From contig JAURFP010000001.1 in assembly GCA_030834275.1 (NCBI GenBank), positions 17,359-81,358 of the forward strand: a stretch of 64,000 nt of DNA. The letters are read 5' to 3'. Below, piece after piece: positions 61,960 to 64,000 of the stretch. Origin of the DNA: Burkholderiales bacterium (GTDB lineage: Bacteria; Pseudomonadota; Gammaproteobacteria; Burkholderiales; Eutrophovitaceae). The notes under the pieces were generated by a model that searched no databases, had not been told where the DNA came from, and saw nothing but the letters and a program-made list of their open reading frames with translations. Both the position numbers and the translations under genes were made by a program. How positions within the stretch are numbered: position 1 is the stretch's first letter; the number at the start of each line of letters is the position of its first letter.

Positions 61960-62937
61960 TTAAAAAGCCCCGCCGCTCGCAGAATCAGATCTCCCCTTCA
62001 TTAGGCTCCTCATTAAAACCGCAAGCTCGATGGCGCGATCCGCCTTTGAAACTAAATTAGAACCAGAGCTCACGATACAGGATAGGGTTGATAAAACTTC
62101 AAGACTATCAACAGTACTGCTCATGTGACTCGTAGATGATCTTTCATCAAAAAGAGCATTTCGTATTTTTCCCATCAATCGACTGCCCCACATTCTCCGC
62201 ACGGATTGGTCGATCCAACGATTTATTTCCTGATCTGACAAAACGTACCCTCTCCAATCCTTCAGATTCCGCCGCTCCTTCACCGCCATCTCAACCGCTC
62301 GCACAAACTGGGAGGCAATGTTTTCTTCCCTCGAAGGAATCTTATGAGCAAGACTCGCCGTTAACTCACTGATACCCACCGGAAAAATCGACCCACCATC
62401 CTCTGATTGCCAAACAGCCACGAACCGGGCGCGTCCATTTCTCATGTCATTAATAAATATCATTTTGAGGATAAATCTGCCTGGCAGACCAAGATCGAGG
62501 TCATATGTCGCAGGAAAACTCAATGTCAATTTCATGATGGCACCATAACTATTCAACTCAAATTCCGTATCAATATCATCAGGATCGAGTCTGATAATTG
62601 GCAATGTCTCGAGCACTAAATCTACAATACGCTGGTGAGACAGTATTTTTTTTCCACGTAAAACTTGAATTTCGGAACTTAGCGTACTGTTTTTTCGATC
62701 CGAGCTAGGGATCAATAAATCGCGATGTAATTTTTTGGAAATACGATTGTTATCATCAATGTTCTCAGGAGGGACCGCTCTACGCTCAAAATTAGGAATA
62801 CGATCGATGAGACCGCGCAAACTTCCATCAAAACACTTACGTGTTCGATTGGACTTATCAAATTGATCCCTTGCATGGACCACATGACCGAGTGAACCAC
62901 TTGAGTCAGAAAAAGAAGAGAAAGAAAGTTGCTCCAT
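61960..62937 (-). CDS. Hypothetical protein, no family recognised
   Basis: 325 aa counted from ATG 62937, which has a consensus AGGAGG 5 nt upstream. The track's earlier starts (GTG 63003, ATG 62991) fall inside a palindrome. I could find no motif. Confidence 0.6.
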   Translation of the reverse strand: MEQLSFSSFSDSSGSLGHVVHARDQFDKSNRTRKCFDGSLRGLIDRIPNFERRAVPPENIDDNNRISKKLHRDLLIPSSDRKNSTLSSEIQVLRGKKILSHQRIVDLVLETLPIIRLDPDDIDTEFELNSYGAIMKLTLSFPATYDLDLGLPGRFILKMIFINDMRNGRARFVAVWQSEDGGSIFPVGISELTASLAHKIPSREENIASQFVRAVEMAVKERRNLKDWRGYVLSDQEINRWIDQSVRRMWGSRLMGKIRNALFDERSSTSHMSSTVDSLEVLSTLSCIVSSGSNLVSKADRAIELAVLMRSLMKGRSDSASGGAF

Positions 62938-62983
62938 GACTACCTCCTGTATTGTTTTGTTGGAAGTAGTATGCAATTGGTAC

Positions 62984-63002
62984 TGGCTCATAGGATGAGC
63001 CA
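62984..63002. promoter_or_regulatory. Perfect 8-bp inverted repeat (candidate operator) between the WYL regulator gene and the hypothetical gene
   Basis: TGGCTCAT-AGG-ATGAGCCA, 40 nt after the regulator stop and 46-65 nt upstream of ATG 62937. No U-tract follows, so it is unlikely to be a terminator. Confidence 0.4.
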
Positions 63003-63042
63003 CCCAGGGACATATCTAAATTTTTTTATTTAATACAATCAA

Positions 63043-64000
63043 TTACTTATTATAAATATTCACATTTTTAATCAGCTCACTTGATACTCGATCCCTCAAT
63101 TCTGGCGGGGAAAGCACCTCCACATCCGCTCCATACTTCAGTATATCCATGAGAAGTTCTGGCTCCTGCGTGTACGGCACTTTTAAGACAAAAGCCCCAT
63201 CATCTTCATAGTAACTCTCTTGATTTGGGTGCCACTGCTCCTGAGATACCCACATGGCTCTTTTTTGATTAAATTTAAGAGTAGCCCACTTAAGGTCATT
63301 TCCCGAAAATATTCCGTATCCAGCTCCCAAAACCTCGTCGAGCTCATCTTTTGTACGATCGACTGCAATTTTTTCTAGCAAAGTCACTTTACGAACAGCG
63401 TCAAGAGCAAAGCTCCGTACCCCCTCGACCATATGACACCAGGCATCTACGTACCAGTTATCTCGGTAATAAACCAACCGCTGCGGAGAAATCTCACGTT
63501 GGGTTTCTTCATTACGTGATCGCACAAAATAACTGATGTCCAACCGGCTGCGGCTCATGACTGCTAACGCGACCGATTCAAAACAGTGGATTCGATGACT
63601 CCTAGAACCCATATTCAAAATCTTAATGCGCTCTCGAATCGATTGCGCCGAATAATCACCAAGCTCAATTAAAGTCTCGAGTTTTTCTTTGAGAGGCTCT
63701 AAACGACTTCCCAATAAACCTGGTTGCATTTGCGCAAGCAGGCTTTCCATGGAGAGAAGCGCCAAAATCTCAGATTGATTGAACCAGATTCCAGGCAACT
63801 CGTAGGGTATCTTCTGCGAGGAGGTAGTGAGGGCGTAGCCCCCTAAGTCTCTGTCGTACTCAATCGGAGCATTCAGTCGGTCTCTGAGGTACTCTAAATC
63901 ACGCTTGAAAGTCGCTCTAGAGACGGAAAGTTCATCTAGAAACGTCTCCAGTGAGACAACTCTATTCTGCCGAAGCAATCGATCAATCTTATAAAAACGC
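63043..64000 (-). CDS. HTH-WYL-domain transcriptional regulator (YafY/BrxR/CapW-like), 5' end outside the window
   Basis: The frame remains open to base 64000 (…[38 protein letters not shown] is the wHTH). The WYL core is [32 protein letters not shown]. The M assigned by the ORF track at 63978 is an internal TTG (Leu). Confidence 0.8.
   Translation of the reverse strand, partial: [318 protein letters not shown]

Follow-up and report, generated by a model that had tools for sequence, protein, structure and literature searches.

A conserved palindrome at a fixed distance from a -10-like hexamer, between a WYL regulator gene and a divergent DUF932 gene: a candidate WYL-dependent promoter in Burkholderiales

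What does a perfect palindrome do between the gene of a WYL-type regulator and that of a 325-amino-acid protein (the cargo), and do the three mark the edge of a genomic island? The question is raised by the end of a stretch of 64,000 nucleotides from a Burkholderiales bacterium (assembly GCA_030834275.1, contig JAURFP010000001.1, positions 17,359 to 81,358; the whole stretch is called the window). A preliminary description, made from the sequence alone, had taken the palindrome for an operator, the 325-amino-acid protein for one without a family and the locus for the possible start of an island beyond position 64000. The results indicate that regulator, palindrome and cargo gene are a co-conserved unit, and that the palindrome, as judged from its conservation, belongs to a promoter-like element of the cargo gene.

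The palindrome, TGGCTCAT-AGG-ATGAGCCA at 62984..63002, lies 40 nt past the stop codon of the regulator gene (63043-63045) and is perfect and singular in the window, as had been read from the sequence. The 64 kb contain its 12-base core, GGCTCA-N5-TGAGCC, a single time, against about 0.004 exact matches expected by chance in our own calculation, and no second box was found there even when up to two mismatches were allowed. Among the 14 genome loci found via the cargo protein, 13 carry GGCTCAY-N3-RTGAGCY 60-110 nt upstream of the cargo gene, and these include loci with the WYL gene 1.5-5 kb away and glycosyltransferase and toxin-antitoxin-like genes in between. Where genes are inserted between the WYL gene and the cargo gene (loci L018, L021 and L022) the box stays with the cargo and not with the 3' end of the WYL gene. 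The core is kept exactly even where cargo identity is only 24-36%. The six outer base pairs of the palindrome are invariant and the centre is free.

The aligned element consists of the palindrome followed by an A, ten variable bases, an invariant CA-n-ACT and then C-A. The C, A, A, C and T of the CAnACT hexamer are invariant and there are no insertions or deletions between box and hexamer in the 14 protein-anchored loci. The loci found by anchoring on the WYL gene have the hexamers CATAAT, CAAAAT, CAGACT, AATACT, TAGAAT and TAGACT, and since this variation retains A2 and T6 the hexamer reads as a -10 box. The palindromic box would then span about -40 to -24 of the predicted cargo promoter. The -35 position coincides with the unconserved N5 of the box, a -35-like hexamer cannot be placed at the proper distance, and the aligned loci have no TG extension (extended -10) at this promoter. 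Downstream of the hexamer, C49 is invariant and A50 at least 90% conserved in the protein-anchored alignment, and standard sigma-70 geometry gives the predicted transcription start. A simple sigma-70 promoter scan left the cargo promoter unflagged, which is expected of a promoter without a -35. The palindrome therefore stands as a conserved, predicted WYL site; the idea of a free-standing operator does not, since the site appears to form, together with a -10 at fixed distance, a composite promoter-like element of which it is the upstream half.

The regulator reading frame is still open at the window edge and lies on the minus strand, like the palindrome and the cargo gene. Pfam confirmed the helix-turn-helix (HTH) and WYL parts that had been recognized before, with matches to HTH_11 (26.5 bits, cut-off 25), HTH_DeoR (21.4 bits, cut-off 21) and WYL (66.5 bits), and added a WCX domain after the WYL domain (52.9 bits). 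The domain order supports the placement of the protein in the ligand-gated HTH-WYL-WCX class, in agreement with the ligand-gated type that had been proposed. Only about five codons are missing beyond the edge, because the 323-amino-acid relative in locus L001, 97% identical, begins with MDRTE-RFYKID. Identity is 60-63% across all other syntenic loci, and the ortholog family, named 'YafY family', has at least 7,983 clusters. The CRISPR-associated WYL models of PADLOC match the protein at 1.7e-39. In a comparison with the Protein Data Bank (PDB) the closest solved structures are PafBC/PafC (top-scoring, 6e-13), BrxR and DriD, and the matches include CapW-like chains as well. The alignment with PafBC, PafC and DriD extends over the WYL-WCX region, and to this region the weak match to DriD (E = 1e-3) is confined. 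At the positions that contact single-stranded DNA (ssDNA) in DriD (PMC10853764), Y168, R178, R189, Y192 and R204 are kept in the alignment, while W206 and Y240 are each replaced by F and R207 by A; six of the eight contact positions were counted as retained or conservatively substituted. The WYL gene starts 18-65 nt after dsbD in the loci with tandem layout, and no box is present upstream of it in these loci. It had been called the only transcription factor gene in the window, and nothing contradicts this: Pfam found no other among 27 open reading frames (ORFs), and the rest look like enzymes or transporters by eye.

The start codon of the cargo gene is correct. The AGGAGG that had been noted 5 nt before the ATG at 62937 is backed by an N-terminus, MEQLSF, that is invariant across 15 homologues, and the database gene calls of 343-347 amino acids are over-extensions that start inside the palindrome. 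The exact sequence of 325 amino acids is not on record by exact look-up, and direct searches with it of Pfam (E <= 0.01), NCBIfam, PADLOC and PHROGs gave no match. The close homologues form 15 clusters, all from betaproteobacterial metagenome-assembled genomes (MAGs). More sensitive comparisons overturned the statement that the protein matches no family. A profile of the cargo family retrieved 136 proteins from 1.8 billion representatives, and nine of the ten distant matches tested carry Pfam DUF932 (PF06067). The hhalign comparison of the cargo family with bona fide DUF932 proteins, including YfjQ of E. coli, gave a probability of 99.4% with E = 3e-21 over 284 columns. An AlphaFold2 (AF2) model from a deep alignment reached a pLDDT of 83.7 and a pTM of 0.82, and its top Foldseek matches in BFVD are phage proteins annotated 'DUF932 domain-containing protein' (probability 1.0, E = 4e-6, TM 0.5-0.6); comparison of the model with the PDB found no similar solved structure. 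The residues H101, N163, W176, H198, W241, W250 and G251 are near-invariant in the superfamily. By profile and predicted fold the cargo is a very divergent member of the DUF932 superfamily, a group with incidental mentions only and no assigned function in the literature. It is the fastest-evolving gene of its neighbourhood, as identity to locus L002 is 36% for the cargo, 62% for the WYL protein and 47-85% for the neighbouring genes.

The cargo start may also be subject to control at the RNA level. RNAfold pairs CAUACUACUUCC with GGAGGUAGU(C)AUG, covering both the Shine-Dalgarno (SD) sequence and the start codon. The fold of the 88-nt leader has an energy of -27.1 kcal/mol (z = -2.68 against shuffles), and when the 5' partner is left free the SD/AUG pairing still maps to element positions ~26-41. 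In 58 unique loci the SD-arm duplex has a mean energy of -12.1 kcal/mol versus -8.2 kcal/mol for composition-matched shuffles (p = 3e-9), and the complementarity is strongest with cargo of DUF932 type (z -2 to -4.8). The two arms co-vary between cargo families with compensatory A-U to G-C changes, for example ACTACTTCC/GGAGGTAGT, ACTGCCTCC/GGAGGCGGT and ACTGTATTCC/GGAGATACGGT. A promoter and terminator scan found no terminator between the WYL gene and the cargo gene, and read-through transcripts are therefore expected. As the predicted start lies ~7 nt past the hexamer, the anti-SD arm would be contained only in transcripts begun upstream. Fold-back inhibition of this kind was reportedly described for IS10 and IS50 by Davis, Simons and Kleckner in 1985; there, an upstream sequence is said to pair with the ribosome-binding site so that external read-through stays untranslated. 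The candidate fold-back insulation at the present locus, suggested by complementarity and geometry, differs in serving a regulator-cargo unit instead of a transposase, even if the box is found at IS1595 transposase genes too.

Public metagenome contigs were scanned with the DNA pattern alone. At least 119 copies of the element were found, 104 of them unique among the matches listed; they come from soils, sediments, fresh water and sea water. Viral contigs scanned with this pattern gave zero copies. A WYL ortholog with 47-64% identity is encoded beside the box in 59 of the 119 matches listed, mostly on the same strand and ending 14-55 nt before the box, with three loci divergent. Most of the matches that lack the ortholog simply have no upstream sequence in the contig. 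With the WYL gene as the anchor, a box was present beside it in four of five loci, and Variovorax sp. WDL1, an isolate, has one as well. The layout is tandem or divergent, and where it is divergent 25-42 nt separate the box from the start codon of the WYL gene. The genes that follow the element encode DUF932-like proteins, ARPP-1, DUF4258, a 53-amino-acid membrane protein, Cas3, RmuC, ADP-ribosylglycohydrolase, ORF6N and IS1595/ISXO2 transposases.

The cargo is a hydrophobic protein of 53 amino acids (MKLEELVQTVTFILCL...) in 12 loci, among them L033, L037, L050, L060 and L068, and recalls small membrane proteins that inhibit division, such as the DriD-controlled DidA. In L042, L049, L072, L074, L082, L092 and L120 the box and -10 precede the start codon of an IS1595/ISXO2 transposase gene by ~60-70 nt. 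These loci share a CCTGATTAGC-like sequence ~20 nt upstream of the box, possibly the end of the insertion sequence (IS), and the upstream DNA at hand, up to 0.9 kb, contains no WYL gene, which suggests that the transposases use a host WYL-dependent promoter in trans. Two loci have duplications of the element. L022 (4494..4570 and 5831..5907) has a second full element before a truncated duplicate of the cargo 5' end (MGEIVNLAMGEACR...), followed by an HTH-nucleotidyltransferase gene, and L018 has a partial tandem duplication (5781..5880); both look like insertion scars at the promoter.

A divergent module is found in a cultured isolate, on plasmid 2 of Variovorax sp. WDL1 (L144, NZ_LR594690.1 276009..278239). 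Its box (276478..276494; locus positions 3942..3958) lies in the divergent region upstream of the WYL gene and faces a DUF4258-like gene of 139 amino acids with the hexamer AATACT, and downstream of the WYL gene there is a mazEF pair and no box. The sister strains SRS16, PBL-E5 and PBL-H6 share this WYL gene. In L148 the WYL ortholog has two boxes, one divergent upstream and one just past the stop codon (2962..2978 and 3994..4010), each facing a small ORF (56 and 69 amino acids).

The reading that is on balance considered probable is that the WYL protein is an activator of the cargo gene similar to DriD, DdaA and SiwR (PafBC-type), and that the two genes form a sensor-effector unit. The WYL protein, which has no operator of its own and whose gene closely follows dsbD, would probably be made constitutively. 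A WYL dimer would bind the 17-bp GGCTCAY-N3-RTGAGCC in place of a -35, at a promoter that would be silent unaided, having the -10-like CAnACT exactly 11 bp past the box and no -35 or extended -10. By analogy with DriD, DdaA, PafBC and SiwR, the WYL domain may bind a nucleic acid as its ligand, upon which RNA polymerase would be recruited; ssDNA that arises from damage or from the processing of foreign DNA is the likeliest candidate. Transcription from ~7 nt past the -10 would yield a short-leader mRNA for the DUF932-like protein. In read-through RNA the -10/discriminator segment would pair with the SD and AUG of the cargo, and only the promoter-initiated mRNA would be translatable. The relatives and the alternative cargos point to an effector that may act in the DNA damage response or in conflict with mobile elements.

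Several points weigh against this activator reading. The choice between activator and repressor is drawn from promoter anatomy, and BrxR and CapW, WYL regulators that also stand beside variable defence-like cargo, are repressors. The invariant C at -12 in the cargo-anchored set is unusual for sigma-70, and part of the motif in the metagenome set was forced by the search pattern (CAnACT; C at position 40). The alanine at the position of DriD R207 may mean a different ligand affinity or identity. Many ARPP-1 cargos have only a weak SD stem or none, and the fold-back logic would fail if transcription truly began upstream of the box, since the stem would then be a constitutive structure of the leader. 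An 'effector' role of the DUF932 cargo is a guess.

A repressor of CapW/BrxR type could instead sit on the palindrome and block a weak promoter or read-through until ssDNA releases it and the cargo is de-repressed. This alternative is regarded as improbable but deserving of serious attention. The domain architecture is the same, the PDB matches include BrxR and CapW-like chains, and both are ssDNA-sensing WYL regulators near diverse defence cargo (PMC11662680; PMC9122601). A box between regulator and cargo with no terminator is in a good roadblock position, and its proximity to the WYL start codon in the divergent layouts makes autoregulation plausible there. However, de-repression alone would give little transcription from a promoter that has neither a -35 nor an extended -10, and strict spacing between box and hexamer is a need of an activator, not of a repressor. 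BrxR and CapW autoregulate, whereas the absence of a box upstream of the WYL gene in the tandem layout leaves no room for autoregulation, and the top-scoring solved relatives, PafBC and PafC, are activators.

It is quite unlikely that the element works solely in RNA, as a structured 5' leader (palindrome hairpin plus SD/AUG stem) that controls translation via a protein, a ligand or temperature, with the WYL gene a mere neighbour. In favour of it, the fold of the leader is better than that of shuffles, SD sequestration reaches significance over the loci with compensatory changes in the arms, and the palindrome imperfections in the first 14 loci are all of G-U type on the sense strand. In 100 unique copies, however, the variable box positions 7 and 11 (T/G 46, C/G 37, C/A 10, T/A 7) combine as independence predicts, and C-A mismatches at this closing pair are common and not depleted. 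The independence of these positions, the invariant stem with a free loop, the -10-like variation of the hexamer in the WYL-anchored loci and a -35 position that falls on the free centre of the box, with no TG extension, together favour the palindrome as a DNA site bound by a protein, and the RNA hairpin was rejected as its principal interpretation. In addition, the box persists in divergent layouts and with cargos that have no SD stem, the WYL ortholog is tightly linked, and Rfam 15 covariance models gave no match at E <= 1 in 61800..64000. The palindrome was also considered, and rejected, as a terminator or 3' element of the WYL gene: it remains with the cargo when the WYL gene is far off, it is also present in divergent layouts, and no T-run comes after it. 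A palindrome of 2 x 8 nt can occur randomly, and the region was left unflagged by the simple promoter scan. Nevertheless, that a chance palindrome or an ordinary WYL terminator lies beside an orphan ORF is so improbable that it can be set aside; this is already refuted by the conservation data, namely the exact core at low cargo identity, the metagenome copies of which half adjoin WYL orthologs, and an ORF that has a confident fold, 15 close homologues and 136 distant ones.

Among the closest known systems is DriD of Caulobacter crescentus, an SOS-independent activator of the damage response with a homodimeric wHTH-3HB-WYL-WCX architecture that the present regulator appears to share. DriD-dependent promoters have no -35; their binding site covers part of the -35 position, and its distance from the -10 is always the same (PMC13004042), an arrangement that the predicted promoter appears to share. 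In the alignment, most of the residues with which DriD contacts ssDNA (PMC10853764) recur in the present protein, and some relatives of the present locus have a divergent small-gene layout or a small membrane-protein cargo that recalls DidA. The site differs, GGCTCA-N5-TGAGCC here versus ATACGAC-N7-GTCGTAT for DriD, as does the usual layout, which is regulator, box and a single variable cargo in tandem. DdaA, an activator of the damage response and anti-phage functions in Moraxellaceae, has targets that include CRISPR-Cas genes and the motif CGWCA-N5-TGWCG (PMC12392091). The box shares its 5-N5-5 geometry and -CA-N5-TG- core but does not match this motif, the outer half-site being GCT instead of CGW, and the 64-kb window has one site only. 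In the metagenome loci the box precedes a Cas3 gene and RmuC, and a cargo spectrum with Cas3, RmuC and small membrane proteins resembles the regulons of DdaA and DriD (PMC12392091).

PafBC and SiwR of Actinobacteria are activators that bind directly upstream of the -10, in the '-26 region', as is predicted here. SiwR is a homodimer that activates only adjacent genes (PMC10693628), and its cargo consists of DinB/YfiT-like genes unlike those of the present loci; PafBC differs as a heterodimer or fusion that uses a half-site. BrxR and CapW have in common with the present regulator a modular association with highly variable defence-type cargo (PMC11662680; PMC9122601). These repressors bind inverted repeats in their own promoters, an arrangement seen only in the divergent-layout relatives and not in the tandem loci, where the box is downstream of the regulator gene and tied to a -10. 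The cargo is also not a recognized defence system: the link to a known one that had been suggested found no match in PADLOC. An independent DUF932-WYL adjacency is present in a very distant host, in the cryptic prophage CP4-57 of E. coli K-12 (L024, NC_000913.3 2768665..2770404), where yfjQ (DUF932, 178 bits) is directly followed by yfjR (HTH and WYL, 25 bits, cut-off 21.8). The gene order is reversed and YfjR, with 233 amino acids, has no WCX domain. ChIP-exo (chromatin immunoprecipitation with exonuclease) of YfjR detected no binding under the tested conditions (PMC8464067) and is uninformative here.

The locus is not the edge of an island. The window proteins are ~95-97% identical to those of Candidatus Eutrophomonas brisbanensis MAGs (Burkholderiales), and beyond position 64000 dsbD is found in close and distant relatives alike, preceding the WYL gene in L001, L010 and L002-L017, including relatives with cargo only 33-36% identical. 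Downstream synteny with the window is kept as well (MBL-rhodanese, GST, FKBP, NIPSNAP, AMP-binding enzyme and others), and the WYL-cargo pair lies inside conserved synteny down to 33% cargo identity. The island edge that had been suggested is not borne out, given dsbD and this synteny. The co-occurrence of regulator, palindrome and cargo gene that had been suspected was found in all syntenic Burkholderiales loci, and the impression of an accessory-looking locus was sound, as in related loci the same regulator and box stand before defence-like or mobile-element cargo. The triad is a co-conserved accessory-type unit embedded in core synteny, not an island marker.

The neighbours of the pair identified by Pfam are dsbD, a thioesterase, an NMT1 binding protein and MBL-rhodanese. 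Three extra genes (59689..61857) lie between the cargo gene and MBL-rhodanese and are absent from this place in the distant relatives L002 and L006. In a MAG of Ca. Eutrophomonas brisbanensis with 95% identity (L010 2805..5895) dsbD and the WYL gene each appear as two overlapping ORFs, probably frameshifts of the long-read assembly rather than pseudogenes. The coordinates of the features are collected in Table 1.

Table 1. Features of the regulator-cargo locus and its neighbourhood, in window coordinates
Feature	Position	Strand	Basis or remark
HTH-WYL-WCX transcription factor gene ('YafY family')	63043..>64000	minus	Pfam domains and relatives
Predicted WYL box GGCTCAT-CCT-ATGAGCC, 17-bp core of the 19-bp perfect palindrome	62985..63001	minus	conservation
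-10-like hexamer CATACT	62968..62973	minus	exactly 11 nt downstream of the box
Anti-SD arm CAUACUACUUCC	62962..62973	minus	RNAfold; overlaps -10 box and discriminator
Predicted transcription start, A's after ...CTTCC	62960..62961	minus	inferred; 7-8 nt past the -10 box
Shine-Dalgarno AGGAGG (62943..62948), 5-nt spacer, ATG (62935..62937)	62935..62948	minus	3' arm of the predicted stem
Cargo gene (325 amino acids), very divergent DUF932-superfamily protein	61960..62937	minus	profile and structure comparison
Terminator-like hairpin and T-run, end of unit	61968..61984	minus	consensus match only; overlaps the last codons of the cargo ORF
4HBT thioesterase gene	61450..61857		one of the three extra genes
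Cys-rich 241-amino-acid protein, no family, repeated C...LS..E motifs	60762..61487		overlaps the thioesterase ORF by 38 nt
NMT1-type binding protein gene	59689..60765		one of the three extra genes

WYL regulators are increasingly recognized as sensors that respond to DNA damage and phage attack independently of SOS, and few have a known site and target. The kind of system is known; the details that appear new, as far as sequence comparison goes, are the candidate box, the clade, the link to the cargo and the proposed insulation stem. For a large uncharacterised clade the locus gives a candidate box, GGCTCA-N5-TGAGCC, together with a promoter design and types of target genes. DUF932, which is common on phages, plasmids and integrative elements, is thereby tied to a defined, predicted regulatory input, and the presence of the module in the cultured Variovorax sp. 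WDL1 makes the predictions directly testable. A wider interpretation is put forward as a tentative possibility: box and -10 may define a widespread and so far undescribed regulon of Burkholderiales and other Proteobacteria that depends on WYL proteins and responds to ssDNA or DNA damage, and in which a clade of activators switches interchangeable effectors, IS1595 elements capture the promoter and a fold-back stem is part of the design. If this is true, the effectors of the regulon would include DUF932, ARPP-1, DUF4258 toxins, DidA-like small membrane proteins, Cas3 and RmuC, promoter capture by the IS1595 family would couple transposition to the WYL signal, and the fold-back stem would keep effectors untranslated from read-through RNA. 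It would also provide the first physiological handle on DUF932.

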